64,000 nt of DNA from sequence record SRR31156797_416. One strand, 5' to 3'. The number at the start of each line of letters is the position of its first letter. Within the stretch, counting starts at the first letter, position 1. The notes under the pieces were generated by a model, which saw only the letters and a list, made by a program, of their open reading frames with translations, ran no database searches and was not told where the DNA came from. This document shows positions 1,363 to 55,048 of this stretch, piece by piece. Both the position numbers and the translations under genes were made by a program.

Positions 1363-2316
1363 ATGAAAAAGTATAGCATTCATTTATTAGTCATAATCTT
1401 TGGTATACTGATATTTAGCATCAGCTGCCAGAAAGACCAATATGATCTTGGCGAACTTGTTGCCCCCTCCAATGTCACATTGAGCTACGAAATAGTTGGG
1501 GCTGATGCCGAAAATCCAAATGGAGATGGCAGTGGCATGGTAGAATTTACGGCTACCGCAAACAATGCCATAACTTATAGCTTTGATTTTGGAGATGGTT
1601 CTGATAAGATGACCTCTGCAAGCGGCAAAGTAACCAAGCGGTTTTCGTTAACAGGTGTAAATACCTATAATGTTACCGTTAATGCCATCGGAACAGGTGG
1701 TGTTACCTCCAGCAGAGCAGACCAGGTTGAAGTGCTTAGTTTATTTGAAGATGCTGAAGCACTGGAATTCATTACCGGAGGTTCATCCAAAACCTGGTAC
1801 TGGGCCTATGACCAACCCGGATTTGTCGGGCTCGGTCCGGTTACCGACGACTATGGTAACCTGGATTTTACCTGGCCTAACTGGTGGAGTATTGGCGCCA
1901 ACGATGAAGAAAAGGCATGTATGTATGATGTGGAATTGGTTTTCACAAAAACTGAAAATGGTGGAATGACTTTCCAGCAAATGAACGGGCCGGCCTTTGT
2001 TCCTGGCTTATATGCAGATGTTCTTGGTGTAACGGGTGATGTTTGTTATATGCCCGGTGAAATAGAGCAGCTTACCGAAGATTTGTTGTACAGTGTGAAA
2101 AATGTAACCTTTTCTCCATCATCAACATTGGCTGCTGAGGCAGGTGGCTACCGCGGTACTGCCATGACAATTTCCGGTGGTGGATTCTTATGCTGGTGGG
2201 TTGGTGCAAGCGAATACGACATCATCGAAGTAACGGAAAACACCTTAAGTGTCAGAATTGAACAGGGTGACGCCGGTGCATGGTATCACACTTTCACCAA
2301 TGTTAAACCTGAATAA
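1363..2316 (+). CDS. PKD-domain lipoprotein, probable surface glycan-binding protein
   Basis: MKK...ISC lipobox, PKD-like FDFGDG, C-terminal GLGP...WWS module. ATG at 1363 is preferred over the longer ORF. Confidence 0.75.
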   Translation: MKKYSIHLLVIIFGILIFSISCQKDQYDLGELVAPSNVTLSYEIVGADAENPNGDGSGMVEFTATANNAITYSFDFGDGSDKMTSASGKVTKRFSLTGVNTYNVTVNAIGTGGVTSSRADQVEVLSLFEDAEALEFITGGSSKTWYWAYDQPGFVGLGPVTDDYGNLDFTWPNWWSIGANDEEKACMYDVELVFTKTENGGMTFQQMNGPAFVPGLYADVLGVTGDVCYMPGEIEQLTEDLLYSVKNVTFSPSSTLAAEAGGYRGTAMTISGGGFLCWWVGASEYDIIEVTENTLSVRIEQGDAGAWYHTFTNVKPE

Positions 2317-26400: not shown

Positions 26401-27178
26401 GACCCAGGGTGCAATTTACTGGCCTGAGGGTGGCATTGTGCCAGGTGTTCCGGGTGCTTTGGAAGTGCTTGAACCAGGTTATGCTTATTATTTGCTTACC
26501 AGCGATGCAGTTGTGCTCGATTTTGGAATGGAAACCAAAAAATCAGTTGAAGAAAATAGCATTCAGTCAGTGGAATATCCTGATGGATGGAATACGGTCT
26601 CCGCAACTGGAAGCCAGCATATTATTTCTGTAAATACAGCTTCATTGGCTGCCGGTGATGTGATCGGTGTATTCAATCAGGATAACGTTTGTACCGGAAT
26701 AGCACAGTATTCAGGTTCTGGTGAAATGATGCCACTGGTTGTCAGGGGTGATGACCAAACCACCGAAGTTGTTGATGGAATGATAAATTCAGAAATGATG
26801 TCATACAGAATTTACAGCAATGGCATCGAAGAATCTGTTCAGGCTGTTTACGATCTGACATTCAGCCATGATGGTGTGTTTGTTGAAAATGGCCTGTCCA
26901 TCATTAACGAATTTAAAGCTGGTGCAACCGGTATTGGAGATTCGGAAACCGCGGCCTTTAATATTTATCCAAATCCGAACAGCGGACAATTCACCATCCG
27001 GGTCGCTGGAAATGCCATCTATGATGTTGTGGTACTGAATGTTCAGGGCCAGCAGGTTTATACCGCCAGCCTTAATGGAAATTCAGGCATTAACCTGGGC
27101 AATCAGCCAAAGGGTGTGTATTTTGTACAGCTTTCCAGTGCCGCTTCAGTAACCATGCAAAAAATCGTTGTTGAATAA
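23432..27178 (+). CDS. T9SS-secreted non-catalytic multimodular protein with three Cys-rich CBM20/48-like repeats
   Basis: Signal peptide, N-terminal half paralogous to the 18607 protein, three VTFSVDMS..GSFNGW..YEYKF repeats, C-terminal IYPNPN...GVYFV...KIVVE. Confidence 0.8.
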   Translation: MKNVLFFLLMFCVTGIFAQPTHTIDFEPGGTGSDWEWIVTENGENPPLEFVANPDDGGPNASATAAMFTAKMGGQSYALTFTDDNGEFTFDADNAMVSIMVYKSRVSPVAVKFEGLSPAKEIQVSNTLTGQWELLEFDFTEVIGSTYNRLVIIPDFEARAEDQIVYFDNIMIPEGVINVLPEPTDTPPVPPHAEEDVISIYTEVYPNVAGTDFNPNWGQSTTVTVNYEAAGNNTIKYENLNYQGTQYANLDVSDYKFIHVDFWTPNSTVLNFYVISPGNETPYALPIEAETWVSVDIELADYVPPVNLADVFQFKVDGNGTVYFDNWYFWKEPYNPDNDATLSDLQVDGETVDGFSPSTLIYDVELPLGTVDVPVVTATPTVEGVEAVVNPAGSLPGTTEVVVTALDGETQQTYQVNFTVAQETPESEYCETIVYHFGIEAIVESAVYLTITNQDANTVFVEIESAGDSPVDLLIVTGESGAAISGEDFSVPGKISRTMTWDTPPEDVELNILWSFEDFEGNWQLSEQPIFVPFDAACAPPGPTMITFRVDMSEYEGTFTNVYVSGSFNGWSGDAYQLLDPGMDDVYEGEFEIPDGNYEYKFTLDNWAVQEEFNGSEPCVITIDGFNNRELIVDGSEVLPAYCWNSCFECGMAPIDVTFSVDMSNYQGNFENVYLSGSFNGWCGDCNMMEDPEFDGIYETTITVFPGNYEYKFTLDNWSAQEQFVGGESCTIESGGFVNRYIEVTETTVVPTVCWNLCEPCPEPVDVTFSVDMSQFDGNYTNVYISGSLNGWCGDCNQMTDPDMDMVYEITLSLVPGAYEYKFTLDNWSVQEEFEGGEPCTVTNGGFTNRYVEVEESGALPLVCWNYCDVCPDYLAGWRGISSNLMQESKASLEEVFEPIIDDVVILVSNDGIFWPGYNINTIGDWDTYKGYKIKFADDVWFEFDGVPVEDKTVALEAGSHYIPVLSDEPVLVNDVLAPHADAIVFAYDMTQGAIYWPEGGIVPGVPGALEVLEPGYAYYLLTSDAVVLDFGMETKKSVEENSIQSVEYPDGWNTVSATGSQHIISVNTASLAAGDVIGVFNQDNVCTGIAQYSGSGEMMPLVVRGDDQTTEVVDGMINSEMMSYRIYSNGIEESVQAVYDLTFSHDGVFVENGLSIINEFKAGATGIGDSETAAFNIYPNPNSGQFTIRVAGNAIYDVVVLNVQGQQVYTASLNGNSGINLGNQPKGVYFVQLSSAASVTMQKIVVE
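25064..26047 (+). repeat. Three tandem ~110-aa modules
   Basis: TF(R/S)VDMS-x-VYxSGSxNGW-x-YEYKFTLDNW-x-QE-x-C-x-GFxNR-x-CWNxCxxC in each copy. Confidence 0.9.
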
Positions 27179-40355: not shown

Positions 40356-43298
40356 TTATTTTAACATTGCCATCCACATAATCTCCACCGGGTGATATGC
40401 CCTGCGGCCTGTTCCATCCTTGATCTGATGACGGCAGGATGTGCCTGGCGCAGCAATCAATGTTTCAACAGGCGTTTTTCTCACTTCCGGGAAAAGCACC
40501 AGTTCACCAACTTTCATCGAAACATCGTAATGTTCCTTTTCGTAACCGAACGATCCGGCCATACCGCAGCATCCTGATTTAATCTCTTCAACTTCAAAAT
40601 TTTCAGGGAATGATAACATGAATTTTGTTGGGGCTATGGATGCCAAAGATTTCTGATGACAGTGGCCATGAAGTTTGATTTTTTTGTTTTCATGTGTAAA
40701 CCTGTTCTTGTCTATCCGGCCCGCTTCAATTTCGCGCTGTATGAATTCATCAAACATCAGGGCGTTTTTACCCAAATCCTTTGCGTCATTCACCAATTCC
40801 TTATCCACAAGTTCCGGATATTCATCCCGGAAAGTCAGGATGCCCGAAGGCTCGATTCCCACAAGGGGCATGTTATGGTGCACCACATTTTTCAGCGCAG
40901 AGACATTATAATTCGCCAAAGTTTTTGCTTTTCGCACCAGCCCCTTGGAAAGGAATGTGCGCCCACTATCTTTGTGGTTGGTCAGGTGAACCTGGTAGCC
41001 AAGCCGGGTAAGCAATTCAACAGCTTTAATTCCGATTTCGGTGTCGTTGTATTCGGTGAACTCATCCACAAAAAAGTAAACTTTTCCAACTGCATTTCCA
41101 TCGGGGTTTATTTCCGGGAGGTTGCGGCTCATCCAGGCCCTGAGAGTGAATTTGTAAAGTGTAGGGATGCTGCGTTTTGGAGCGAATCCCAGCACACTTT
41201 TCAAAATACCCGAAGTGATTTTATTTGTGAAAATGAAATTGGAAATGGTGGGAACAATCATCCCAAGTTTGTTCAGTCGGGAAATGTATGCAATTGCACG
41301 GGTTCTTAAGGGGATGCCGTTTTCATCATAATAATGTTGCAGGAACTCGGCCTTGTACTTGGCAATATCCACGCTTGAAGGACATTCTGATTTACACCCT
41401 TTGCAAGAGAGGCAGAGATCCATCACATCGTAAATCTCCTGGTGGTCAAACGGGTTTTTCTTGGGCGAATTGGTCAGGAATTCACGCAGGGTATTAGCCC
41501 TAGCCCGGGTTGTGGTATTTTCATCACGGGTGGCCATGTAGCTGGGGCACATCGTTCCGCCAATGAGCTCCGATTTTCTGCAATCACCAGAGCCGTTACA
41601 CCTTTCTACAGCGCGCATCATGCCCCTATCAGATGAATAGTCGAAAACCGTTTCAATTTGTTTGGTTTCAGATCCCGGCACATACCTCAGGCTGGTTTTC
41701 ATGGAAGGTGTATCCACAATTTTACCCGGGTTAAAGATATTACCTGGATCCCAGGTTTGTTTCACCTCCTTCATCAGGTGGTAGTTGTGCTCACCCACCA
41801 TAAGCGGAATGAACTCACCACGTAGCCGGCCATCGCCATGTTCGCCACTAAGGGAGCCATTAAATTTTTTAACCAGTTTGGCTGTTTCAAGTGCCACTTT
41901 GTAAAAAAGTTCCACATCCTTCTCTTTTTTCAGGTCCAGTACCGGACGAAGGTGCAATTCACCGGTGGCAATGTGGGCATGGTAAACTGCGGTAAGATTG
42001 TGTTTTTTGAGGATTTTTTTGAATTCATCAATATATTCAGGCAGAACCTCCGGATTTACGGCCGTATCCTCCACCAAAGATACCGGCTTGGCATCGCCGG
42101 GGATATTCGAAAGTAAACCCAGTCCGGCTTTTCGTAACGCCCACACTTTTGGAATATCCAACCCAAAAACACGCGGGAAACGGTAGCCATACCCGGCCAT
42201 ACGCATGTCCTGTTCCAAAGCATTAGCAATGGCAAGGATTTCCTCTTTGCTGTCGCGGGCAAATTCGATGATTAAAATGGCAGCCGGATTACCATCAATG
42301 AAGAAACGGTTTTTGCGCTGTTCCAGGTTATCTTTGGTTTGTTGCAGGATCACGTCATCCATCAGCTCAATGGCTCCGGGTTTGTGTTTGAGCGCAATGA
42401 GGTTGGCATGAAAAGCATCTTCAAGTTTATCGAAGTGAACACAAACCAGCCCCTTTGTTTTTGGTGGCAGCGGAACCAGGTTCAGCTTAATTGCTGTTGT
42501 AAAAGCCAGCGTACCTTCTGATCCTGCAAGCAGTTTGCAAAAATTGAATCCTTCTCCCTTGTCATCAAACGGTTGGCTTTTCGCCAGGAGGTCCAGGGCA
42601 TAACCGGTATTTCTGCGTTCTACGTTCGGATCAGGGAACTCTTTATCAATTTCCAGACGATTTTCAGGTAAACTTAAGATACTTGCAATGTTTTTATAGA
42701 CTTTATTTTCCAGGTTGTTGCCAAATTGTTTTTGTTCAAACTCCTCATTGGTTAATTTTCCAAATGTAGCCTCTGAACCATCGCTCATAATAACGTCCAG
42801 TTCGAGTGTATGCTCGCGGGTGCTGCCATAAATAAGCGAATGGGCACCACAGGAGTTGTTGCCAACCATACCTCCCATAACACAGCGGTTTGCAGTAGAT
42901 GTTTCAGGGCCAAAAAATAAACCGTGTTTTGCGGCTTCGATATTGAGTTCATCGAGTACCACTCCGGGTTCTACCAGTGCCCACTTTTCAGCTTTGTTTA
43001 TTTCAAGGATTTTGTTCATGTGGCGCGAAATATCCACCACAATTCCTTCGCCCACAACCTGTCCGGCAAGGGAAGTGCCTGCCCCTCGCGGAATTAGTGG
43101 GGCCTGATGCTCAGAAGCAAACATTACTAGTTTCCTGATGTCGTTTTTGTTTTTGGGCCTGGCAATGGCTAAGGGCAATTCCCGGTAGGCTGAAGCGTCA
43201 GTGGCATACTGGATACGTGATGCATTATCCATAAAAATATCACCATCAAAATCCGGCTTTAGTTTTTTCAGTGATTCGAGTACTGTTGATCTATCCAT
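40356..43298 (-). CDS. FAD-linked oxidoreductase with Fe-S and CCG domains (YdiJ-like D-2-hydroxyacid dehydrogenase family)
   Basis: YATDAS, PRGAGTSLAGQ, GEHGDG, CxxxxxC and CLSCKGCKSECP clusters, HGHCHQ, CCGMAG; TAATTTTG at 43324-43331. Confidence 0.9.
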   Translation of the reverse strand: MDRSTVLESLKKLKPDFDGDIFMDNASRIQYATDASAYRELPLAIARPKNKNDIRKLVMFASEHQAPLIPRGAGTSLAGQVVGEGIVVDISRHMNKILEINKAEKWALVEPGVVLDELNIEAAKHGLFFGPETSTANRCVMGGMVGNNSCGAHSLIYGSTREHTLELDVIMSDGSEATFGKLTNEEFEQKQFGNNLENKVYKNIASILSLPENRLEIDKEFPDPNVERRNTGYALDLLAKSQPFDDKGEGFNFCKLLAGSEGTLAFTTAIKLNLVPLPPKTKGLVCVHFDKLEDAFHANLIALKHKPGAIELMDDVILQQTKDNLEQRKNRFFIDGNPAAILIIEFARDSKEEILAIANALEQDMRMAGYGYRFPRVFGLDIPKVWALRKAGLGLLSNIPGDAKPVSLVEDTAVNPEVLPEYIDEFKKILKKHNLTAVYHAHIATGELHLRPVLDLKKEKDVELFYKVALETAKLVKKFNGSLSGEHGDGRLRGEFIPLMVGEHNYHLMKEVKQTWDPGNIFNPGKIVDTPSMKTSLRYVPGSETKQIETVFDYSSDRGMMRAVERCNGSGDCRKSELIGGTMCPSYMATRDENTTTRARANTLREFLTNSPKKNPFDHQEIYDVMDLCLSCKGCKSECPSSVDIAKYKAEFLQHYYDENGIPLRTRAIAYISRLNKLGMIVPTISNFIFTNKITSGILKSVLGFAPKRSIPTLYKFTLRAWMSRNLPEINPDGNAVGKVYFFVDEFTEYNDTEIGIKAVELLTRLGYQVHLTNHKDSGRTFLSKGLVRKAKTLANYNVSALKNVVHHNMPLVGIEPSGILTFRDEYPELVDKELVNDAKDLGKNALMFDEFIQREIEAGRIDKNRFTHENKKIKLHGHCHQKSLASIAPTKFMLSFPENFEVEEIKSGCCGMAGSFGYEKEHYDVSMKVGELVLFPEVRKTPVETLIAAPGTSCRHQIKDGTGRRAYHPVEIMWMAMLK

Positions 43299-43488
43299 GC
43301 TTAATTTCCCAAATAGTAGGCATCAAAATTAATGAATTGGGTTGATTTTTGAATTTATCATTAATGCGAATCATTCTAAATATGTAGCGTTGAGTGAAAA
43401 CTTTTAAAAATATTTTAAAAACCACACCGCGTTGTCGTACATTTGTTTTGCTAAGTTCAACAATTTACTCATCAAATCACGCACACCA

Positions 43489-44790
43489 ATGAAAAGAATC
43501 AGTCTTTTTGTTGTAATTCTGGTTATCGCCGGTTTTGCGCTTGGGCAATCCACATCGCAGGATGGCCGGTGTATCATAGAAAAACAACTCAACACCAATC
43601 TCATTCAGGTTGCCGATGAAATCGGCGACTTCACCATCACCGATTCCGATGGTGTAACTCACAACCTGTACGAATCACTCGATGCAGGGAAAACAGTGTT
43701 TATCGACCTGTTTTTTACCACATGACCGAGTTGCCAGACATATGCCCCAGTTATTGAAGCGGTATATGTCAATACAGGATCAGGGGACGGCAACATCCTG
43801 ATGTGGGGCCTCACACCCCAGGACAACAATACTCAAATCAACACCTACAAACAAACTTATGGGATCACAAATCCTTGTGCCGGCACAGAAGGCGGAGGCC
43901 CGGCAGCGATTAATACTGTTAATAGCGGACAACCTTTCATCGGTTATCCTACCTATATTGTAGTATGCCCCGACCATACGGTACATTACGATGTATGTTG
44001 GCCACCATCAGAAACCTGTTTCGATCCGTATTTTGAAGATTGCGGAGCAACAGGCATTACAGCGCTTTTCGAGGCCGATATAGAAGAACTTTGTGAGGGG
44101 GGCGAAGTTAGTTTTACCGATTTGTCCACACCGGGTGTCACAAGCTGGGAGTGGACATTCGAAGGTGGAACTCCTGAGACTTCCAACGAGCAGAACCCGG
44201 TGATTATGTATGAAACTGCGGGAACTTTTGATGTTTCCTTAACAGTTTCAGATGGAGCCAACTCAGCTTCTGTGGAAAATGCTGATATGATCATGGTTCA
44301 TACACTTCCGGAAGTTACAATGGAATCACCCGGTGAAGTCTGCCTGGAATGGGAGCCATTTGAACTGACCGGTGGCATGCCGGAAGGCGGCGAATATTCG
44401 GGGCCGGGGATTATGGATGGGATGTTTGATCCACTCGCCGTTGGCCTTGGAACTTTTACTATAACCTATACATACATGAATGAGTTTAATTGTGAAAGCT
44501 TTGCTGAAGCAGAGGTTATCGTAACTTCTTGTGTCGGGATGGAAGATTTTGATGGATCATCACTCACGGTTTATCCAAACCCATCCAATGGAACTTATAA
44601 TGTGGTTTCTGGTTCTGAAAATAACGTAGAGCTGGAGGTATTCAATTCGAGCGGCCAAAAGGTCATGAATGCGCTTATCAATGGATCAGGTACAATCGAC
44701 CTCTCGGGCAAGCCGGATGGTATCTATTTCCTGAGATTAAATGATAAAGCTAAGTACAAAATTATCCGCCTCGTTTTAATGCATGAATAG
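43489..44790 (+). CDS. Candidate selenoprotein (433 aa): signal peptide, redoxin/thioredoxin-fold domain with U79-P-S-C82, PKD domain, Ig-like segment, T9SS CTD
   Basis: DFTITDSDG...GKTVFIDLFFTT-TGA-PSCQ reads in frame into the 43801 ORF. cis-Pro-like GYPT, PKD WEWTFEGG, C-terminal VYPNPS...GIYFL. TACATTTG promoter element at 43438-43445. Confidence 0.8.
43737..43770 (+). promoter_or_regulatory. Candidate bacterial SECIS hairpin
   Basis: GACATATGCC/GGTATATGTC 10-bp stem (one G-U pair) starting 11 nt after the TGA at 43723-43725. Confidence 0.55.
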
Positions 44791-44812
44791 CGATTCGATT
44801 CATATTTTCAAC

Positions 44813-44853
44813 ATAAAAAAATAGCCCCGGTTTTGAGGGACTATTATTTTTAT
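44813..44853. terminator. Probable bidirectional terminator
   Basis: A-tract-AATAGCCC...GGGACTATT-T-tract between convergent genes; the stem is imperfect. Confidence 0.5.
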
Positions 44854-44865
44854 TCCTTTTCTGTG

Positions 44866-47097
44866 CTATTGTATAAGGAGTTTTCGGTAATCTGTTTTAT
44901 CGCCTGATCGTATAACAAACTGGTAGAAGCCCTTTGGTAATTTCGAAACGTCAATTGTTGATTTTCTGGTACCTTCCGGAACAGGTTGGGTTTTAACAAG
45001 CATTCCTGCAATATTAAATATTTCAATTGATGAATTATTGTTATGATTGGAAAGCAAAACTTCAACAACCGAATTGGCCGGATTTGGATACAGGTTTTCG
45101 ATCAAACCGGATTCATTAGGTAGATTTTTATCCAAACCAACAGTTAATTCTGGCATCATCCTGAAATTTACCGGAACATTTACAGACGGATTCAGTACGT
45201 CGTTGCTGTTGATCACAATTTGTGCTTCCATCAGTGTATCTTCCATGATGGCCATCAGCCTCACATACATGGTATCAGAATCCAATGGCTCTGTCACACC
45301 AAATGTTGGCTCAATCAGCTTAATCCATCCGGGAGGAGGAGTAGTAGCCAGATCGTAAACCACAATCTTATCGGCATTTGTTGTGGTGTCATTCCAACTG
45401 TCATGCAGGGCGATCATCGTGAGCTTGTTTTCCTGCCAGTTAGGAGTTATAAAAATATCTTCTGGCTCATCTGATTGTGCCGGATCGAGGCTCATGTTGA
45501 CACCATCAAACTCAACACCTGTAGGTGCTGCAGTGTTTGGATTTAATCGTAATGCTTTAATTTCGCCATTTTCAATGTAGTATGCCCAGAGGTATGGGCC
45601 TCCCGGGGACCAGTTATCCCACGATAACCCCTCAATATCATAATCTGTCACGAAGAAATTTATCTCATCACCATCCTTATTGATAACCTTGATAGCTCCA
45701 ACACCATTGCCAAGGTAAAATAGCTCTTGCTGTGGGTCATATGCCAGACCATCTGCAAAGAAGCTTCCTTTAAAATAGGATTCCAGTGTACCACCGGTTT
45801 CCGGATTTATTTTATTGATGGTGTATTGGGTGGTTGCATAAAGGAATTCATCATCAGCAGTTATTGCCGACCATCCATAACTAAATGCGTAATTAATAGA
45901 AGTACTGACGATTTCGGAGCCATCTTTTTTGATCTTGTAAACTCGAAACTGATCATCAAAATTGGTTGAAGTATTTATATAAAAGTGATCGTTTATAAAT
46001 GCAATCCCACGCATTCTGTTGTCAGGTACCGGGCCTGTTAGTGCAGTTACATCAAATTTTAGTAGTGTATCGCCAAGTATGCCGTTGGGATCCCACATGC
46101 CGGGATATTCCAGGTTGGCAAACCAGTTGAGGTTCGATGAATTATCCAGGTTAGAAATATACACCGGAACATCCAGAGTGTCTCCGGGCATCACTTGATT
46201 CTGTATGGATTCAGGAGTTACGCTGATTTCCGGCCCGGGAACACCAGTTCCTTCAGGATCCAGATCATAGGCAACAACCCAATCGAGCTGATCATTGTAA
46301 GATGCATATGATGAACCATGTACACCGATCAAGGTCAGTCTACCGTCGATAAGCTGGTCGGTGATGGTTGCCCCTGCTGCTCCATCAGCTGCATAAGGGC
46401 CGAGTGGGTTCATGATAACACCTTCAAAAGTAACTTCAGTAAGCGTCCCGGTTTGGACGTTTAACTGAAAGGCTTTTGGCCTTACGTCGCTGGGGGTATA
46501 TTTCATGGCCCATATCCAAAGGTAGGGTCCGCCTTCTGAAACATTATCCCATGCCAGTCCCGACATACCCTGGTCAGGAATGAATCCAACTGAATTGTAA
46601 ATATTTCCCTGTTTGTCAACTTCATAAATGATTGAGTTTTCTCCGGCAATCCAAAAATGATCGGTTTCCGGATCATAGGTGATGCCCTTGTTATAATACA
46701 GAGGTGCATCAAAAGTATAACCTGTTTTCTGTCCTGTTCCTATGTCAATCTGCCATACACTGTCCATCCCTGCGGCCCACAGGTGTTTGCCATCGTAGGC
46801 CAATCCGGCCCAGCCAACAGCTTCAATCCCGTATTCGTAAGTTTCAACCAGAGTCTGGCCATCAGCAGTAAACTTGTAAAGTTTATGCTGCCACAAATCG
46901 TCCGGGTCAGCGCCGGTCATCCAAAGGTAACCATCAACATACTCCACACCAAAAATGGCACGGTCCGGAGTTGGGGTAAGCACCCCTGCATTGAATGAAA
47001 ACAGGGTATCGCCAAGCGAGGTTTCCTGAGCATTTGCAGCTTGATTAAACAATAAGATTGTGAGGCCAATAAAAAGGAAGTGTCTGATATTTTTCAT
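44866..47097 (-). CDS. T9SS-secreted protein with two duplicated beta-propeller-like domains
   Basis: Signal peptide. Two LGDTL...GLAYD/GITYDP...GLxWDNxSxGGPYLW units. C-terminal LYPNPA...GFYQF...KLLIQ. Confidence 0.75.
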   Translation of the reverse strand: MKNIRHFLFIGLTILLFNQAANAQETSLGDTLFSFNAGVLTPTPDRAIFGVEYVDGYLWMTGADPDDLWQHKLYKFTADGQTLVETYEYGIEAVGWAGLAYDGKHLWAAGMDSVWQIDIGTGQKTGYTFDAPLYYNKGITYDPETDHFWIAGENSIIYEVDKQGNIYNSVGFIPDQGMSGLAWDNVSEGGPYLWIWAMKYTPSDVRPKAFQLNVQTGTLTEVTFEGVIMNPLGPYAADGAAGATITDQLIDGRLTLIGVHGSSYASYNDQLDWVVAYDLDPEGTGVPGPEISVTPESIQNQVMPGDTLDVPVYISNLDNSSNLNWFANLEYPGMWDPNGILGDTLLKFDVTALTGPVPDNRMRGIAFINDHFYINTSTNFDDQFRVYKIKKDGSEIVSTSINYAFSYGWSAITADDEFLYATTQYTINKINPETGGTLESYFKGSFFADGLAYDPQQELFYLGNGVGAIKVINKDGDEINFFVTDYDIEGLSWDNWSPGGPYLWAYYIENGEIKALRLNPNTAAPTGVEFDGVNMSLDPAQSDEPEDIFITPNWQENKLTMIALHDSWNDTTTNADKIVVYDLATTPPPGWIKLIEPTFGVTEPLDSDTMYVRLMAIMEDTLMEAQIVINSNDVLNPSVNVPVNFRMMPELTVGLDKNLPNESGLIENLYPNPANSVVEVLLSNHNNNSSIEIFNIAGMLVKTQPVPEGTRKSTIDVSKLPKGFYQFVIRSGDKTDYRKLLIQ

Positions 47098-47190
47098 TTG
47101 TTCATGTAGTGTTTGATTAAAACTCTTTGCCATTGCAAGTTACAACTAAGACCGGAAAAAGTTTGTAAGGTGCCTGAAAAAAATGTTAAA

Positions 47191-47252: not shown

Positions 47253-48509
47253 TTAGCCACCAAAATCGTCAAAGGCGATATTTTCAGGAGGAACACCGTA
47301 ATCGTCGAGCATTTTAAGCACAGCATCATTCATCATTGGCGGGCCACAAATGTAATATTCGATTTCTTCAGGTTCAGGATGATTTTTTAAATAATTATCC
47401 ATGATAACCTGATGGATGAAACCGGTATAGCCGGTCCAGTTATCTTCTTCCTTGGGCTCAGAAAGTGCAACATGAAATTTAAAATTGTCGTTTTCTTCCT
47501 GGATTTTTTCAAAATGATCCATGTAGAACAACTCGCGCATTGAGCGGCCACCATACCAGAATGTGGCTTTGCGGTCGGTTTTTTTGGTTTGGAAAAGATC
47601 GAAAATATGTGAGCGCATTGGAGCCATGCCGGCACCACCACCGATAAACATCATTTCCTTGTCGGTAGGTTTGATGAAAAATTCGCCATAGGGGCCTGAA
47701 ATAGTAACCTTGTCGCCGGGTTTTCTTGAGAAGATGAATGATGAACAAATTCCGGGGTTCACTTTCATGAAGCCATTGGCTTTGCGGTCCCACGGGGGAG
47801 TTGCAATACGGATATTGAGCATCACAATATTTCCTTCTGCAGGGTGGTTGGCCATGGAGTAAGCCCGGAATATGGGTTCCGGGTTCTTCATCTTCAGGTC
47901 CCACATATTGAATTTATCCCACTCATCGCGGTATTCCTCTTCTACATCCATGTCTTTAAAGTCGACCACGATTGGCGGCACATCAATCTGAATATAACCA
48001 CCGGATTTGAAGTCGAGGTTTTCGCCTTCGGGAAGTTTAACAACGAACTCCTTGATAAAGGTAGCCACATTGTGGTTTGAAACAACTTCACATTCCCATT
48101 TCTTAATACCAAAAATCTCAGGTGGGACATTTATCTTCATATCCTCACGGATCTTTACCTGGCACCCCAGGCGCCAGTTGTTCATCTGTTCCTTACGGGT
48201 AAAATAGCCTACCTCGGTAGGAAGGATGGAGCCACCTCCTTCCATCACCTGGCATTTACACATGGCACAGGTACCGCCACCACCACAAGCTGAAGGCAGA
48301 TAAATGCCCTGGTTTGAAAGTGTGGTAAGCAATGTGCTTCCCGGATCCACTTCCATCTCCTTTTCTTCGTTGATGGTGAGATTAACTTTTCCCTGGGGAG
48401 TTAATTTTAAACGGGCAAAAAGTAAAAGTGCCACCAGTGAAATGATGATAATAAGAAAGATGGCAATACTTACGCCGATAACTCCTCCGATTCCAGTTGC
48501 TAAAATCAT
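47253..48509 (-). CDS. nqrF: Na(+)-translocating NADH:quinone reductase subunit F
   Basis: [12 protein letters not shown] 2Fe-2S motif, [27 protein letters not shown]. Confidence 0.97.
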
Positions 48510-48547
48510 CTTATTGAATATTTTAGAGTTGTACTATTTTTTATTAA

Positions 48548-49165
48548 CTACAGTTTGATGCCCATGAAGCTCATGAAGGCAATGCCCATTAATCCGGTAA
48601 TGATAAATGTTATACCAAGTCCACGCAAAGGAGCCGGTACATTTGAATACCTGATTTTTTCACGAATGGCAGCGATACCAACAATCGCCAGGAACCAACC
48701 TACTCCCGAACCAAGTCCAAACGAAGTGGCCTCGGCAATGCTGGCATATTCTCTCTCCTGCATAAAAAGTGAACCACCAAGTATGGCACAGTTTACAGCG
48801 ATTAGAGGGAGAAAAATACCCAGTGACGAATAAAGTGCAGGCGAGAATTTCTCAATTACCATTTCAACAAGCTGCACCATAGATGCGATTACAGCAATGA
48901 ACATAATAAAACTGAGGAAACTCAGGTCTACGTCAGCCAGTGAGGGGTTGAGCCATGTCAATGCACCCGGCTGAAGCAGGTAATTGTTAATCAGGTAGTC
49001 GACCGGTACCGTTATACCGAGCACGAAGACTACAGCGATGCCCAGACCGACTGAAGTTTTCACGGTTTTCGAAACTGCCAGGTAAGAACACATACCCAGG
49101 AAGTAGGCAAAAACCATATTGTCAACGAAAATGGACTTTACGAATATGTTAATTAAGTTCTCCAT
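48548..49165 (-). CDS. nqrE: Na(+)-NQR subunit E
   Basis: [23 protein letters not shown]. Confidence 0.96.
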
Positions 49166-49227
49166 TTTAATCTTGTTTTTTCTTTGTTAATCAAATTCTT
49201 AAATCTGACATCGGATATCTTATATCC

Positions 49228-49872
49228 TTAATTCTCTTCAATCAGTTCTTTATCTCTGCTGCGCTGCACCCAGATGATTACACCAACCGTAATCAGTGCC
49301 ATTGGTGGAAGGATCATGAGGCCGTTGTCTTTGTAACCAAATTCATAAAAAGATTCAGGAACTACCTGGTACCCCCAAACAGTTCCAGAACCAAGCAGTT
49401 CACGGAAAAAGGCCACAACGATAAGAATCCAACCATAACCTGCAGCGTTTCCAACTCCGTCGAGGAATGATGGCCATGTTTTGTTGCTCATGGCAAAGGC
49501 CTCGAAGCGACCCATGATGATACAGTTGGTGATGATCAACCCAACAAACACTGAAAGTTGTTTGGAAACATCATACAAAAATGCTTTTAGTACCTGGTCA
49601 ACAAGAATTACCAGTGAGGCGATTACAACCAACTGAACGATGATACGGATACGTGGAGCAATGGTTTTACGCAGTAACGAAATTACCACATTACCAATAG
49701 CCATAACGGCGACCACAGAAAGGGTCATTACGAAAGCCGGTTCAAGTTTAACGGTAACCGCCAGTGCTGAACAAATCCCCAAAACCTGAATGGTGATTGG
49801 GTTTTCCTTACTGAGCGGTGTTGTAAGCAGTTTCCTGTTTTTTGCTGAAAATAAGGGTTCTTTAATGCTCAT
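49228..49872 (-). CDS. nqrD: Na(+)-NQR subunit D
   Basis: QVLGICSALAVT, LIITNCIIMGR. Confidence 0.96.
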   Translation of the reverse strand: MSIKEPLFSAKNRKLLTTPLSKENPITIQVLGICSALAVTVKLEPAFVMTLSVVAVMAIGNVVISLLRKTIAPRIRIIVQLVVIASLVILVDQVLKAFLYDVSKQLSVFVGLIITNCIIMGRFEAFAMSNKTWPSFLDGVGNAAGYGWILIVVAFFRELLGSGTVWGYQVVPESFYEFGYKDNGLMILPPMALITVGVIIWVQRSRDKELIEEN

Positions 49873-49874
49873 AA

Positions 49875-50630
49875 TTACTTGTTTTTCTTGATGTAAGGAA
49901 CATAATTTTCAAGGCAGTCTTCAAGCATAACTGAAACGCCATCACTTGTAATCGTGCCGCCTGAGATGGCATCAACACCATGGTCAACGGGGATGTTACT
50001 ATTAGCAACTCCACCCTTTACAACTTTTACCGAAACAAAGTTGCCTTTATCATCAAAAATGGTTTTGCCTTTAAATTCATCTTCAAACCAGTCGGTGTTT
50101 ATTTCTGCACCAAGTCCGGGGGTTTCCCCTTTATGGTCGAAAGTTGCTCCTGAGATGGTATTAAAATCAGATTCAAAAGCAATGTTGCCCCATACCGGAC
50201 CCCAAAGCCCCATACCACGAACCGGCACAACATAACTTCTTTTGCCATTATTTTCCATGACAAAAATGGGCCACATGGGATTCTTGGTTCCTTTTCCGGA
50301 TTCAAGGTTTTTTTTAAGGTCTAATTGTTCCTTGAGTTTAATTTCAAAAGGCCTTGTATCACCCTTTTTTAGTTCACCATCCTTATAATGGCTGACTACA
50401 TTACCGTCAGAATCGATGGCAAATTCCTCGATGATCTTCTGGTTGTATATTTCTTCGGCGCCATCCCTTTCGGATGCAATATTTGCAGAAGCCAGGATGC
50501 CCTGAATTTTTTCAGCTTTGACATTGGCAAGCTGAAATGGCTTTAGTACCATTGCTGCCGATGATAAAATGGCAGCAACAACGATCACCATGATCGACGC
50601 ATATGTAAAAATATATCTGTTTGTAAACAT
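49875..50630 (-). CDS. nqrC: Na(+)-NQR subunit C
   Basis: Start MFTNRY, GLWG, HKGETPGLGAEI, FMN site ISGGTITS. Confidence 0.95.
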   Translation of the reverse strand: MFTNRYIFTYASIMVIVVAAILSSAAMVLKPFQLANVKAEKIQGILASANIASERDGAEEIYNQKIIEEFAIDSDGNVVSHYKDGELKKGDTRPFEIKLKEQLDLKKNLESGKGTKNPMWPIFVMENNGKRSYVVPVRGMGLWGPVWGNIAFESDFNTISGATFDHKGETPGLGAEINTDWFEDEFKGKTIFDDKGNFVSVKVVKGGVANSNIPVDHGVDAISGGTITSDGVSVMLEDCLENYVPYIKKNK

Positions 50631-50641
50631 AACTGATAGTT

Positions 50642-51832
50642 TTAAGCGGTTGCTACTTGTGCGGCCTGAGCGCGTTTCATACGTTTCTTGATATTGCCTT
50701 CCACCACATAATGATCGATTAGCGGAGCAAATACATTCATCAGGAGGATGGCAAGCATCATCCCTTCCGGATAAGCTGGGTTGAAAACCCTGATTACAAC
50801 AGCAAGTACACCTATTAAAATTCCATAAATCCACTTGCCTTTATTGGTTTGCGAAGCACTTACAGGATCAGTGGCCATATAAACGGCACCGAATGCAAAA
50901 CCACCCATTATGAGGTGATAGTAAGCAGGCAGGGCCATGTAGGCATTGTCGATTGAAAATGTACTTGAAAGTAAATTAAGTAATAATCCAGCACCAAGTC
51001 CACCTATAATAACTGAAAGAATAATTCTCCAGCTTCCGATGCCTGTTGCGATCAGAAAAATAGCTCCTATTAAAATCAGGAATGTTGAGGTTTCACCAAT
51101 CGAACCCGGGATAAACCCAAAAAACATATCTGAGACACTTGGAAGTGAAGCCATCAGCTCATCACCGCTATTAGCGGTATTTGTGAGTAATTGGCCCAAT
51201 GGGGTTGCGCCTGAATAAGCATCAGCTTTTTCAGCTATCCACACTTTATCACCGGATAAATCCTGCGGGTAAGCAAAAAATAGAAATGCACGTGCAGTGA
51301 GTGCTGGGTTTAGGATATTCATTCCGGTTCCACCAAACACTTCTTTGCCAATGATCACTGCAAAAATGGTTGCAAGGGCAACCATCCAAAGTGGTGTGTC
51401 AGGAGGGATGATAAGTGGAATAAGTATTCCCGAAACCAGGAATCCTTCATTAACTTCATGTCCGCGAAGCTGAGCGAAAATAAATTCAACTCCAAGCCCA
51501 ACCACATAAGATACCACAACGATAGGCAGAATTTTGCCAAGCCCGAAAAGGAAATTTTCCCAGATCGTAGCTACTTCGCCATGTGATAGATGATGCTGGT
51601 AACCAGCATTCCACATGCCAAAGAGCAGGGTAGGGATAACAGCAATTACCACCACACTCATGGTACGTTTCATATCAATGTAGTCCCTGATATGGCTTCC
51701 AAGCTTCGTAGTTTTGTTAGGCACAAACAAAAAGGTTTCGAAAGCATCAAACGTACTTTGCAGGTACGAAAACTTTCCTCCCTTCTCAAATTGTGGTTTG
51801 ATTTTGTCAACAAAATTTCGAATTGCGTTCAT
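50642..51832 (-). CDS. nqrB: Na(+)-NQR subunit B
   Basis: KEVFGGTG, FMN site SGATPL, PGSIGETS, MATDPVS, YPEG. Confidence 0.96.
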   Translation of the reverse strand: MNAIRNFVDKIKPQFEKGGKFSYLQSTFDAFETFLFVPNKTTKLGSHIRDYIDMKRTMSVVVIAVIPTLLFGMWNAGYQHHLSHGEVATIWENFLFGLGKILPIVVVSYVVGLGVEFIFAQLRGHEVNEGFLVSGILIPLIIPPDTPLWMVALATIFAVIIGKEVFGGTGMNILNPALTARAFLFFAYPQDLSGDKVWIAEKADAYSGATPLGQLLTNTANSGDELMASLPSVSDMFFGFIPGSIGETSTFLILIGAIFLIATGIGSWRIILSVIIGGLGAGLLLNLLSSTFSIDNAYMALPAYYHLIMGGFAFGAVYMATDPVSASQTNKGKWIYGILIGVLAVVIRVFNPAYPEGMMLAILLMNVFAPLIDHYVVEGNIKKRMKRAQAAQVATA

Positions 51833-51855
51833 TATCTAATCATTTATTTATTTCG

Positions 51856-53208
51856 TTAACTCATTTCTTTTCTCATCATGTCAATACCTTTGCGCACAAT
51901 GTGCTGAATCTCGGTCTTCGAGGTATCAATGTATTCTACCAGCGCAAAGTCTTCCTCATCAATCTCGTAGATGCCGAGTTTTTCCATGGCGTCGATGTCT
52001 TCTACCATAATCGATTTGATAAGTTGCATGGGATAAATATCGAATGGAAAAACTTTTTCCATTTCTCCGGTCATTACAAATGCACGTTCGCCACCGTGAT
52101 AATTGGTGTCGAGCCTGTATTTTTTATTTTTACTGTTGAGGAAGGTTGGAAATGATTTGGAAAAGCTGAATTTCCCAATTCCGGGCAACGCCCATCCAAA
52201 CATTTCATAGTAGTCACCTTCGGGTAAAATGGTTACCTGTGAATCGTAGAAGCCTACAAATCCATTTTTATCAATTTGTCTGCCGGTAAGTGCATTTCCG
52301 GATATGTACCTTACTTTACCTGCTTTAACATTGTCCTTGATCAATTCAGAAATGGCAGCGCCATATTTAGTCTTAAAATATTTGGGGCTTTCAACTTCTG
52401 AGCCTGTTAGTGCAATGATGCGTTCAGGGTTAAATCGTCCTTCAAGGAAAAAGCGGCCAATGGTCAGTACTTCCTGTGGGCGGAGATGCCAAACAACTTC
52501 ACCTTTATTCAAAGGATCGATTTTGTTGATTTGAACACCAACATTTCCTGCCGGGTGTGGTCCTTTAAAATAGTTTAACTGAACATTTTTTGAGTTGGTG
52601 AAAACCTTGGATTTGGCTTCACGCGCAGGCAGGTTCAGATGAACAGTTCCGTCGGTAAGTTTTTTAATGGCATCAATTCCTGCCTGAAAAGCTTCGCCAT
52701 GGCCATGAACGATCAGATCGTAATCCGGAGCAAGTGGTGCAGAATCGAATCCGGAAATAAATATGGACTTGGGAGTATCTTCAGGATCGGCAATTGTTGT
52801 GTAAGGACGCTGCCTTATCATAGGCCAAATGCCGCTTTGGAGCAGTTTTTCGATAATTTGCTCACGGCCTAATGCATTTGGATCGGCCTTGCCAAAATCA
52901 ACATATACCTGCTCGGCATCAGCTTTAATGGTAACTTCAAGAAGTACCCTTTTGGCTCCACGCCTTATTTCTTTCACAGTTCCACTCACCGGCGAACTGA
53001 ATTTAATGTTGTCGCGGTACTTATCATAAAAGATTTGTGTACCGGCTTTTACCACGTCACCTTCCTGAACCAGAAGCTTTGGAAAAATACCATGGAAGTC
53101 GATGGGCTTAATGGCGTAAAAGCCAGCCTCAACTTCTGTAATGGTCTTTTCGGCCTCTCCCAGAAGGTTGATGTTTAAACCTTGTTTAATAGTGATCGTT
53201 TTCGACAT
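51856..53208 (-). CDS. nqrA: Na(+)-NQR subunit A
   Basis: GLNINLLG, SPVSGTV, GPHPAG, EEDFAL; operon position. Confidence 0.96.
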   Translation of the reverse strand: MSKTITIKQGLNINLLGEAEKTITEVEAGFYAIKPIDFHGIFPKLLVQEGDVVKAGTQIFYDKYRDNIKFSSPVSGTVKEIRRGAKRVLLEVTIKADAEQVYVDFGKADPNALGREQIIEKLLQSGIWPMIRQRPYTTIADPEDTPKSIFISGFDSAPLAPDYDLIVHGHGEAFQAGIDAIKKLTDGTVHLNLPAREAKSKVFTNSKNVQLNYFKGPHPAGNVGVQINKIDPLNKGEVVWHLRPQEVLTIGRFFLEGRFNPERIIALTGSEVESPKYFKTKYGAAISELIKDNVKAGKVRYISGNALTGRQIDKNGFVGFYDSQVTILPEGDYYEMFGWALPGIGKFSFSKSFPTFLNSKNKKYRLDTNYHGGERAFVMTGEMEKVFPFDIYPMQLIKSIMVEDIDAMEKLGIYEIDEEDFALVEYIDTSKTEIQHIVRKGIDMMRKEMS

Positions 53209-53740: not shown

Positions 53741-55048
53741 ATGAAGAATTTAATTTTTGTACTGTTTTTAGCGGGATTTACAGCTTTGTGGGCCTATGGC
53801 CAGCAAGATGGCAGTTATGATTATTACCAGGAAAACTTTATCAGGAATTCGGATTACATCTATAGGGACAATATTAAAACAGTGCTTGTTTACAAGGACG
53901 GGGAGCAGATGGTTGAACCGGTTCTGCTTCTAAACTCCGACGACCGGTTAATTTTCAGGTTTGATGATTTGGATGCGGACTATAAAAAATACGAATACAC
54001 CATTATCCACTGTGATTCCGACTGGAATGAGTCTGATTTGATGCCCAATGAATACCTGGAGAGTTTTCAGGATGATTTTATTGATAACTTTCAATATTCG
54101 GTAAACACCATGGAAAGTTATACCCACTATTGGAAAACCCTGCCCAATGATATCATTAGCTGGCGATTGTCGGGAAATTACCTGTTAAAAGTATACCTGG
54201 ATGGTGACCCTGAAAATGTAGTTTTTACCCGCCGGTTTTTCGTGGTTGACCCAAAGGTGAGTATTTTGGCAAGGGTAAGTAAACCTGCCAAAATCTCTGA
54301 AAGAGATACCCGTCAGGAAGTCAGATTCAGTATCCAAACTGCAGGGTTGCAATTGAGCGATCCTTATCGTGAAATTGATGTAACCATCAGGCAGAACGGC
54401 CGATGGGATAATGCCATAACCGACCTTCAGCCAAGGCTGATCACCGGAACGGAACTTTTGTATGACCACGACGAGATAAATGTTTTTGATGGAGGAAATG
54501 CATTTCGTTATTTCGACCTAAAGAGTTTGCGTTACAACTCTTTCAGGGTGGGGGCCATCGAATATACCCCGCAGGATGGTTACCAGGTGTTTTTGCATGA
54601 CGATGAAGTGAAGAAAAAAAATGTTTTTGAAAGTGTTCAGGAGAGCATGAATGGCCGGTTTTTGATCAAAACCGAGGACATGTACAATACCAACTTTGAG
54701 GCTGATTACGCCAATGTTCATTTTTTTATCCCTTATAAAACCCCGCTCATTCAGGGAGAACTTTACATCATGGGTGGCCTCACTTACTGGCAGTATCTTC
54801 CCGGAGCCAAGCTATCCTACAACTACGATCGTGGGGGTTTTGAAGGTTCGTTGTTGCTCAAGCAGGGGTATTACAATTACCATTTCCTGATGTTACCCAA
54901 TGATTCAAAGATCGGGGAATACGAAATGATGGAGGGGAACTTCTTTGATATGAATAACGAATACAATTTTTATATATATTACAAGCCGCTGGGTGGTAGG
55001 TACGACAGGCTTGTAAACGTAACCCGGATTTTGGCCTTCCCCAATTAA
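53741..55048 (+). CDS. DUF5103 protein (T9SS plug protein family)
   Basis: Signal peptide, FDDL, YTIIHC, SGNYLL, QNGRWDN, LLKQGYYNY; TATTTTTG at 53696-53703. Confidence 0.8.
   Translation: MKNLIFVLFLAGFTALWAYGQQDGSYDYYQENFIRNSDYIYRDNIKTVLVYKDGEQMVEPVLLLNSDDRLIFRFDDLDADYKKYEYTIIHCDSDWNESDLMPNEYLESFQDDFIDNFQYSVNTMESYTHYWKTLPNDIISWRLSGNYLLKVYLDGDPENVVFTRRFFVVDPKVSILARVSKPAKISERDTRQEVRFSIQTAGLQLSDPYREIDVTIRQNGRWDNAITDLQPRLITGTELLYDHDEINVFDGGNAFRYFDLKSLRYNSFRVGAIEYTPQDGYQVFLHDDEVKKKNVFESVQESMNGRFLIKTEDMYNTNFEADYANVHFFIPYKTPLIQGELYIMGGLTYWQYLPGAKLSYNYDRGGFEGSLLLKQGYYNYHFLMLPNDSKIGEYEMMEGNFFDMNNEYNFYIYYKPLGGRYDRLVNVTRILAFPN

Follow-up and report, generated by a model that had tools for sequence, protein, structure and literature searches.

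Locus and reading frame

The 64,000-nucleotide stretch of DNA from record SRR31156797_416 (the window, meaning the whole stretch that was analyzed) carries, on the plus strand at 43489-44790, a single frame of 433 codons that ends in TAG and whose sole interruption is a TGA at 43723-43725 (codon 79), in the context VFIDLFFTT-U-PSCQ, where U stands for selenocysteine (Sec). The comparisons of sequence and modelled structure described below make it highly probable that this is a single functional selenoprotein gene, which would encode a Bacteroidales UxxC redoxin with predicted export by the type IX secretion system (T9SS). The list of open reading frames (ORFs) produced with translation table 11 cuts the gene into two pieces, 43432-43725 and 43801-44790. 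A first-pass annotation, made from the sequence alone, had instead joined two ORFs into one frame broken by TGA codon 79 (VFIDLFFTT-stop-PSCQ), and our frame translation agrees with it exactly. The features of the gene are as follows.

43489-44790, plus strand: whole candidate selenoprotein gene, with signal peptide, redoxin domain, PKD domain, second Ig-like domain and T9SS C-terminal domain (CTD) (translation, profiles and AlphaFold2 model)
43489-43545, plus strand: probable signal peptide of the general secretory (Sec) pathway, with MKR, a hydrophobic run and ...ALG before Q20 (by eye)
43621-44058, plus strand: ResA/TlpA-like thioredoxin-fold (redoxin) domain, approximately residues 45-190 (AlphaFold2, Foldseek and PDB profile)
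43723-43725, plus strand: UGA codon 79, putatively read as selenocysteine (aligned with the first Cys of CxxC)
43723-43734, plus strand: redox motif U-P-S-C, at the N-terminal end of helix 80-95 (translation, alignment and AlphaFold2)
43737-43770, plus strand: hairpin resembling a selenocysteine insertion sequence (SECIS), stem 43737-43748 paired with 43759-43770, loop 43749-43758 (covariation)
43942-43953, plus strand: G-Y-P-T loop, a probable cis-Pro loop (invariant residues)
44098-44292, plus strand: PKD domain, residues 204-268 (Pfam PF18911, E 5.6e-10; PF00801, E 3.8e-9)
44302-44532, plus strand: second all-beta Ig-like domain, approximately residues 272-348 (AlphaFold2 strands 282-346 at a predicted local distance difference test score, pLDDT, of 91-97; no family match)
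44569-44787, plus strand: T9SS type A C-terminal sorting domain (TIGR04183, PF18962)

The same annotation had taken TGA to be a normal stop for the other genes of the window, which is what the termination codons indicate. The long ORFs end in TAA in 27 cases, in TAG in 9 and in TGA in 7 (n=43), and no in-frame TGA was found elsewhere among the long ORFs of the window, so that the code is not reassigned.

The stretch was present in one DNA run (X1) and in no RNA run. An independently assembled X1 contig shows 0 differences from it over 43400-44800 at a word depth of ~344, so that the TGA at 43725, where a check of the reads had been proposed, is also found in a separate assembly, though X1 may be the source sample.

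Codon 79 in homologous genes

A homologue search with residues 1-200 as the query returned 65 proteins. The full-length relatives have 432-433 amino acids with a PKD domain, or approximately 280-287 without it, and all of those aligned carry C-x-x-C at the codon-79 column with the exception of P0002. This agrees with the earlier proposal that the TGA occupies the position of the N-terminal Cys of CxxC. P0002, a database protein of 433 amino acids that is 69% identical, has a W at the Sec column (FFST-W-SSC), presumably because its gene, on a 1.8-kb contig, was called with a table in which TGA means W.

More than half of the database matches (34 of 65) cover no more than 56% of the 200-residue query region, and some of these short relatives are named 'PKD domain-containing protein'. 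In all 15 that were aligned, the first residue lies 9-26 columns beyond the TGA column, and the start codons differ, a pattern that gene callers leave at a read-through stop. Annotation pipelines had been expected to miss the gene, and gene callers do regularly split genes of this kind. With roughly half of the database relatives recorded as 'PKD domain' or hypothetical proteins lacking the catalytic domain, the family would be missed by secretome and selenoproteome surveys of anaerobic digesters, sediments and guts.

The abundance of partial calls in public sets, all of the aligned ones starting past the TGA column, could also be taken to mean that the TGA is a true stop, separating a 78-residue secreted peptide from a 329-residue PKD-CTD protein that begins at M105 (43801). 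We consider this very improbable. The downstream product would lack the signal peptide that T9SS cargo needs and would begin in the middle of a thioredoxin fold, past helix 80-95, and the start codons of the partial calls are not homologous to one another. Additionally, a true stop would have to fall exactly at the catalytic Cys column, and it would leave the downstream hairpin and the association with Sec machinery, both described below, without a role.

The codon at residue 79 was then read in the DNA of 38 loci from 37 species-representative genomes. It is TGA in 24 of the 38 loci and TGT or TGC in the remaining 14; the proposed tblastn comparison for homologues with Cys or a conserved TGA at this position therefore returned both. 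A second, tandem TGA copy at four loci brings the number of TGA copies beyond that of the window to 28. These come from 23 other genomes and share 45-85% identity with the query over the redoxin domain, a divergence that excludes the origin of the 24 TGA loci from one recent clone. Each of the TGA copies forms one open frame whose N-terminus resembles a signal peptide, and a single tblastn alignment spans the TGA in all relatives. The recurrence of TGA at one column in 28 further copies is far beyond chance.

The two states differ in their motifs: the Sec forms have U-[S/P/G]-[S/A/T/F]-C, most Cys forms C-[S/G/Y/T]-[Y/W]-C. Two main architectures were observed, a short one (266-279 amino acids) consisting of redoxin and CTD, and a long one (425-442 amino acids) consisting of redoxin, PKD, Ig-like and CTD regions. 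Amongst 19 copies of the long type (171 pairs), the median ratio of nonsynonymous to synonymous substitution rates (dN/dS) was 0.084 upstream of the TGA (33 codons; 77 of the 171 pairs usable, the others being saturated) and 0.153 downstream of it (59 codons; 98 of 171 pairs usable). The low values on both sides indicate that both halves are translated in frame and under purifying selection, and they rule out that the locus is a pseudogene, the product of an error or a pair of unrelated ORFs.

These observations leave very little room for a nonsense mutation, a pseudogene or a sequencing or assembly error in what was formerly a Cys gene. Such an explanation could draw on the Cys found at 14 of the 38 loci, on the single base that separates TGA from TGT or TGC, and on the circumstance that the only run with the stretch may be its source sample, so that the read check is not independent. 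It is opposed by the TGA at the same column in 28 copies from 23 genomes at 45-85% identity, by the purifying selection on both sides together with a covarying hairpin limited to the TGA forms, and by the separate X1 assembly with its 0 differences at a depth of ~344. We regard its probability as negligible.

A conserved hairpin downstream of the UGA codon

An ungapped alignment of the 29 TGA copies (window plus 28), in which the U of UGA is column 1, contains a hairpin with a 12-position stem, columns 15-26 pairing with columns 37-48, in 27 of the 29 copies. The stem of the window copy begins 11 nucleotides past the UGA, and 11 of its 12 positions pair. The loop is 10 nucleotides long, has the form A-N-U-U-A-U-N-G-A-A and carries a near-invariant G at loop position 8. 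Across the 29 copies, 87.9% of the stem cells are paired, in comparison with 80.4% after shuffling (0 of 500 shuffles reach 87.9%), and 8 of the 12 stem pairs have changed on both sides (0 of 500 shuffles). Sliding the partner strand by 1-3 columns lowers pairing to 20-54%, and RNAalifold recovers the identical helix unaided.

The 14 Cys homologues are the decisive control, because they encode nearly the same peptide and yet the hairpin is missing from them: at the homologous positions 43.5% of the cells are paired, against 43.7% in shuffled alignments (308 of 500 shuffles as high). Folds of 63 nucleotides are likewise more stable in the TGA forms than in the Cys forms, with means of -16.8 and -12.3 kcal/mol, respectively (Mann-Whitney p 6e-4).

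As given in the part of PMC13188914 available to us, the bacterial SECIS (bSECIS) model has an upper stem of 4-16 bp, an apical loop of 3-9 nucleotides with a G in the first two loop positions, a distance of 16-37 nucleotides from UGA to loop and a minimum free energy of at most -7.5 kcal/mol; some bacterial SECIS elements fall outside it, according to the same text. The 12-bp stem, the distance of 23 nucleotides from UGA to loop and the minimum free energies of -9.4 to -25.6 kcal/mol observed here are within these limits, unlike the loop. Formate dehydrogenase was considered as a SECIS control, and homologues were identified in 23 of 23 genomes (E <= 1e-50), with no in-frame TGA among the matches listed. 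Genes resembling NF045500 that carry a TGA were for this reason taken for comparison; they are described in the last section.

Selenocysteine decoding genes in related genomes

The machinery for Sec decoding was tested in the 37 genomes behind the loci, that is, in relatives of the window organism, of which 23 are TGA genomes and 14 are Cys genomes. Matches to selA and to selB over their cut-offs occurred in the same 24 of 37 genomes; they comprise 22 of the 23 with TGA and, from the 14 with Cys, only G010 and G014. A tRNA-Sec of 93 nucleotides, scoring 57-65 bits and mostly located just upstream of selA, was detected in 20 TGA genomes as well as in G010 and G014; with a partial tRNA-Sec at a contig start beside selA in G031, the count for TGA genomes is 21 of 23. 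Weaker RF01852 matches (47-50 bits) found elsewhere are probably other long-arm tRNAs, and 5 of 14 control genomes also exceed that cut-off. The gene selD was over cut-off in 33 of 37 genomes, and the four without it are Cys genomes. The association of selA, selB and tRNA-Sec with TGA is the expectation from selenocysteine decoding, although the genomes are related and do not count as independent trials. Within the 64-kb window no selA, selB, selD or tRNA gene was found and the Rfam scan was empty, a piece of this size being too small to inform.

The same association bears on the possibility that read-through of the UGA inserts Trp, Cys or Gly in place of Sec, whether through a reassigned code or through near-cognate suppression. 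The W recorded at the column in P0002, 69% identical to the window protein, speaks for such a reading. The code of the window speaks against it, with TGA ending 7 of 43 long ORFs and absent in frame from the other long ORFs, and so do selA and selB, found in 22 of 23 TGA and 2 of 14 Cys genomes, and tRNA-Sec, which likewise tracks TGA. Additionally, a Trp at the catalytic position of CxxC would be inactive. There is in our judgment only a slight chance that a residue other than Sec is inserted. Altogether, the TGA/Cys column, the covarying hairpin and the co-occurrence of the machinery in relatives back the selenocysteine reading that the first-pass annotation had put forward. Each of the computational checks suggested there, so far as it could be run, turned out in its favour.

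Two further observations concern these genes. Most of the genomes G001-G034 have two selD genes; one is ~345-390 amino acids long and sometimes lies beside selA and selB, and the second is within an open frame of 737-786 amino acids, which suggests a fusion with another domain. In G009 the selA match (G009:C9:557779-558981) contains one TGA and one TAA, yet the TGA redoxin copy (L009) is kept; the stops could come from a frameshift or a misassembly, or could mean that the gene is broken.

Structure of the catalytic domain

An AlphaFold2 model built from 35 sequences had a mean pLDDT of 86.3, with 81-96 in the redoxin domain. Foldseek matched the model to Bacillus subtilis ResA (1su9_B; template modelling score, TM, of 0.84 on the target; root-mean-square deviation, rmsd, of 2.7 A over 146 columns) and also to 4nmu (a Bacillus thiol-disulfide oxidoreductase), 3or5 (a Chlorobium TlpA-like protein), 3ios and 1lu4 (DsbF and DsbE of M. 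tuberculosis) and thioredoxin-family proteins of Bacteroides. ResA, 4nmu, 3or5, 3ios and 1lu4 together span TM 0.75-0.84 and rmsd 2.6-3.5 A. A PDB sequence profile search also led to ResA (4nmu, E 3.6e-5). The thioredoxin-fold domain that had been proposed from the sequence is confirmed by both the model and the ResA match.

Profile matches to the established families were weak. The window protein (P0001) scored 27.7 bits against the ResA model NF002854 (residues 3-131, E 2.2e-6), with a cut-off of 170, and it gave no match to PF00578, PF08534 or any other Pfam redoxin-type family at E <= 0.1. The ResA model was matched weakly by 20 of 35 family members, and the PF00578 cut-off was passed weakly by four relatives.

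In the model, U79 follows strand 69-74 and precedes helix 80-95, which is where the attacking cysteine of thioredoxin folds sits. The GYPT segment directly precedes strand 155-159, and its residues G152, P154 and T155 are invariant in the 35 aligned sequences, which is in keeping with its earlier description as cis-Pro-like, a geometry that we infer. Residues C130 and C160 and an NPC-AG-x-x-G-x-G stretch are invariant in the same sequences too.

Predicted export

The C-terminus matches the T9SS type A sorting domain with 49.5 bits against a cut-off of 23 (TIGR04183, NCBIfam) and Por_Secre_tail at residues 361-425 (PF18962, Pfam; E 7.6e-12), and AlphaFold2 models residues 360-430 as a beta-sandwich. 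With these scores and those of the PKD domain listed above, the PKD-CTD architecture claimed earlier holds. A probable signal peptide was read by eye as MKR, a hydrophobic run and G-Q, and all 29 TGA copies have a similar N-terminus followed by Q. A CTD is present in 22 of the 28 other TGA copies (23 of 29 with the window) and in 33 of 35 aligned database members. The window additionally encodes three further CTD proteins and a T9SS plug gene at 53741-55048 on the plus strand (NF052315, 392 bits against a cut-off of 100). PorU was over cut-off in all 23 TGA genomes and in none of the 14 control genomes.

The mechanism of T9SS type A sorting is known from Porphyromonas gingivalis; its cargo needs a signal peptide and passes through the periplasm. 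ResA-type reductases, for their part, act at the outer side of the cytoplasmic membrane, which in Gram-negative bacteria means the periplasm, and are fed by CcdA/DsbD. It is conceivable that the protein is a genuine selenoprotein whose redox work is periplasmic, like that of ResA, TlpA and CcmG, or that binds metal or chalcogen without catalysis, and that the CTD serves disposal or display. The structurally closest proteins are indeed extracytoplasmic reductases, the precomputed Pfam entries of one relative (P0060) include SCO1/SenC, and an extracellular electron donor is not known. We nevertheless judge this explanation unlikely. The type A CTD has been kept in 23 of 29 TGA copies and 33 of 35 aligned members, and we would argue from such retention across the family that export matters. 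There is also no membrane anchor and no conserved CcdA/DsbD-like neighbour, and a PKD/Ig stalk is typical of surface-displayed proteins.

Phylogeny and genomic context

For the redoxin domain, a maximum-likelihood tree with 43 rows needs no more than one state change to account for the Sec forms, a number as low as this arising in 0 of 500 label shuffles. On the Sec side the short paralogues group together with good support (100/99). The placement of the Sec forms on one branch, short paralogues included, indicates that the TGA was kept through duplication and long divergence. Copies in two metagenome-assembled genomes (MAGs) labelled 'Chlorobiota' (L015) and 'Clostridia' (L031) nest among Bacteroidales and come with PorU over cut-off, and these labels or the binning are probably wrong.

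Three more distant paralogues were found in G024 and G008, each of which starts with a signal peptide, carries UPSC or UGTC as its motif and has a tail of the YPNP type. The hairpin is present in the shared register in L050 and L051 and is weak in L049. Their TGA codons are located as follows.

L049 (433 amino acids), 1658-1660, minus strand: in-frame TGA
L050 (294 amino acids), 1656-1658, minus strand: in-frame TGA
L051 (281 amino acids), 1667-1669, minus strand: in-frame TGA

At least four redoxins of the present family are encoded by G024. A scan of five genomes with PF00578 gave four matches with a TGA, one of which is L024a and the other three the distant paralogues just described, so that no independent family emerged from it.

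The sole recurrent neighbour is a 755-amino-acid CTD protein, found at five loci including the window (the others being L004, L012, L018 and L025), which could be a functional partner or merely co-located cargo. Around the redoxin gene, the window contains the following.

40356-43298, minus strand: divergent neighbour, a 980-amino-acid FAD-linked oxidase fused to a 4Fe-4S/GlpC-like domain; best match YdiJ-type D-2-hydroxyglutarate dehydrogenase, 651 bits, under the cut-off of 1350
44820-44845, no strand assigned: terminator-like hairpin between the redoxin gene and its convergent neighbour (consensus match; weak)
44866-47133, minus strand: convergent neighbour, the 755-amino-acid protein with a T9SS tail and no other recognized domains
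47253-53208, minus strand: operon for an Nqr-type Na+-translocating NADH:quinone oxidoreductase (NqrA to NqrF-like), adjoining the T9SS plug gene
2384-31658, plus strand: large beta-glucan utilization cluster encoding three GH16, GH17-like, GH30, GH2-like and GH81 enzymes along with three sugar transporters of the MFS type and multidomain proteins of very large size
23432-27178, within the beta-glucan cluster: one of these multidomain proteins, with CBM48-like modules and a T9SS tail

The terminator consensus gave one match in the scan, against 1.7 expected from shuffles. Neither the sigma-70 promoter scan nor the terminator scan gave matches above those in shuffled sequence, and the promoter consensus does not cover Bacteroidota.

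Proposed function and weight of the evidence

What has been computed is the recoding signature, the fold and the position of the active site, together with the sorting tail and the Sec and T9SS machinery of the relatives. Building on them, SelB and Sec-tRNA(Sec) would decode UGA79, directed by the hairpin located within the coding sequence 11 nucleotides downstream. The signal peptide would then take the protein across the inner membrane by the general secretory pathway, and folding would follow in the periplasm. There the type A sorting domain would pass it to the T9SS for release or surface attachment. Outside the cell, the ResA/TlpA-like domain would most likely carry out thiol-disulfide exchange, in which Sec79 would attack a substrate disulfide or an oxidant and Cys82 would resolve the intermediate, leaving a Se-S bond in the oxidized state. 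The PKD and Ig-like domains may act as a stalk or a binding module. Sec would have the attraction of exchanging faster and of being readily re-reduced by ambient thiols or sulfide. Where a dedicated reductase is absent, it might be favoured because a selenenylsulfide could be re-reduced by weak environmental reductants.

Several observations weigh against this interpretation and need to be considered together. The loop of the hairpin has 10 nucleotides, as opposed to 3-9 in the bSECIS model, and a G falls in the first two loop positions in some copies only. The 68-nucleotide fold of the window copy by itself is not above shuffles (z -0.53), and two of the 29 copies, L024a and L024b, are without the hairpin in the shared register. 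On the tree, the branch uniting the Sec forms is moderately supported (76/89) and occurs in 78% of bootstrap trees. Sec machinery was shown in relatives, the nearest of which is 88% identical over the redoxin domain, and one TGA genome, the MAG G003, gave no selA or selB match, which may be a matter of MAG incompleteness. A recognized type A CTD is missing from 6 of the 29 copies; of these, L003 runs into the end of its contig, and five have BACON, GEVED or different modules at the C-terminus. No conserved neighbour hinting at an electron donor was found across 39 loci, and we know of no extracellular reductant, which makes a catalytic cycle outside the cell speculative. Selenium insertion at UGA79, the surface location and the substrate are, finally, steps that we infer.

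As for the role of the predicted exported selenoprotein, generic extracellular thiol-disulfide exchange, for example in loosening disulfide-rich substrates or in handling other cargo, is favoured, if tentatively, at a little better than one chance in three. A surface peroxidase is also possible, though we would hold it with more reserve. Chalcogen or metal chemistry appears unlikely, and a mainly periplasmic role more unlikely again.

A broader and rather doubtful proposal is that anaerobic Bacteroidales (Lentimicrobiaceae and relatives) keep the Sec machinery largely for the cell surface, as an extracellular 'selenoproteome' composed of paralogous families of T9SS-exported U-x-x-C redoxins, with up to approximately ten genes per genome. 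Sec would in that case have been selected because there is no reductase outside the cell, with sulfide or thiols recycling the enzyme and with over-oxidation being resisted. If true, these proteins would be self-sufficient extracellular disulfide reductases or peroxidases, a role that to our knowledge has not been described for bacterial selenoproteins.

Confirmation of the gene as an exported selenoprotein would mean that selenium biochemistry reaches the outer surface of Bacteroidota by way of the T9SS. It would also raise the question of how a redox enzyme is recycled outside the cell, and whether Sec solves that problem. Additionally, the Sec/Cys split within one family, tied to selA and selB, offers a clean natural system in which to follow the exchange of Sec for Cys.

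Comparison with known systems

The closest known relatives in structure are the proteins of the ResA/TlpA/CcmG/DsbE-DsbF family (cd02966). The window protein shares with them the thioredoxin fold with the extra elements of the family, export from the cytoplasm, a dithiol motif at the start of the first helix, and a G-x-P-T loop. It differs from them in having Sec in place of the first Cys, and a cleavable-looking signal peptide and T9SS tail instead of a membrane anchor. It also adds the PKD and Ig-like domains, the NPC-AG-x-x-G-x-G stretch and further conserved cysteines. No CcdA/DsbD-type neighbour is conserved over the 39 loci, distant CcdA/DsbD genes not having been searched for. With T9SS type A cargo it has in common a C-terminal sorting domain over cut-off and, to judge by eye, probably an N-terminal signal peptide.

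The portions of the reviews of prokaryotic selenoproteomes available to us list several UxxC thioredoxin-fold families, amongst them Prx-like (PF00578), thiol-disulfide isomerase-like, TlpA (cd02966) and Redoxin (PF08534). As described there, these selenoproteins resemble the window protein in having Sec in the UxxC of a TlpA/redoxin-like fold, Cys homologues and a hairpin within the ORF after the UGA, whereas its T9SS tail and PKD architecture lie outside their definitions. The novelty claimed in the first-pass annotation was overstated in this respect, since UxxC redoxin/TlpA-like selenoproteins already appear in those listings. Secretion, signal peptides and Bacteroidota are never mentioned in the main texts of the reviews, as far as these were available, and in the Sargasso Sea and Global Ocean Sampling (GOS) papers 'secreted' occurs solely within the COG names of proteases; none of the terms sought occurs in the deep-Sep paper. 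Among the papers listed by the literature searches, judged by title and abstract, none links selenoproteins to T9SS export, though an earlier listing is possible, and release 20.0 of NCBIfam holds no specific model for the family. The catalytic part of the protein is of a well-known kind, a UxxC redoxin resembling ResA and TlpA; it is for its predicted export that no literature precedent was found.

Another family considered was the 'Omp28-related selenoprotein' (GOS_C / NF045500), which in Zhang & Gladyshev 2008 (PMC2398784) is a predicted thioredoxin-like selenoprotein with a UxxC motif. It was rejected as the family of the window protein, as 0 of 35 aligned members match the model at E <= 0.01 and P0001 does not match it at E <= 0.1. 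The motifs are also distinct (GTW-U-x-Y-C in NF045500-like genes, FFTT-U-x-S-C here), and the hairpin loops differ. Weak NF045500-like matches were nonetheless present in five genomes, with one in-frame TGA in 14 of the 30 listed, including the following.

L053:1537, plus strand: NF045500-like gene, TGA
L054, TGA at 1534, reversed strand: NF045500-like gene
L055:1540, plus strand: NF045500-like gene, TGA

All three have a signal peptide and the GTW-U-x-Y-C motif, and two of the three (L053 and L054) have a CTD-like tail. Their hairpins place G-rich loops of 7 nucleotides ~20 nucleotides from the UGA. Taken together, the present family, its paralogues and the NF045500-like TGA genes suggest that some genomes encode many exported Sec-redoxins.

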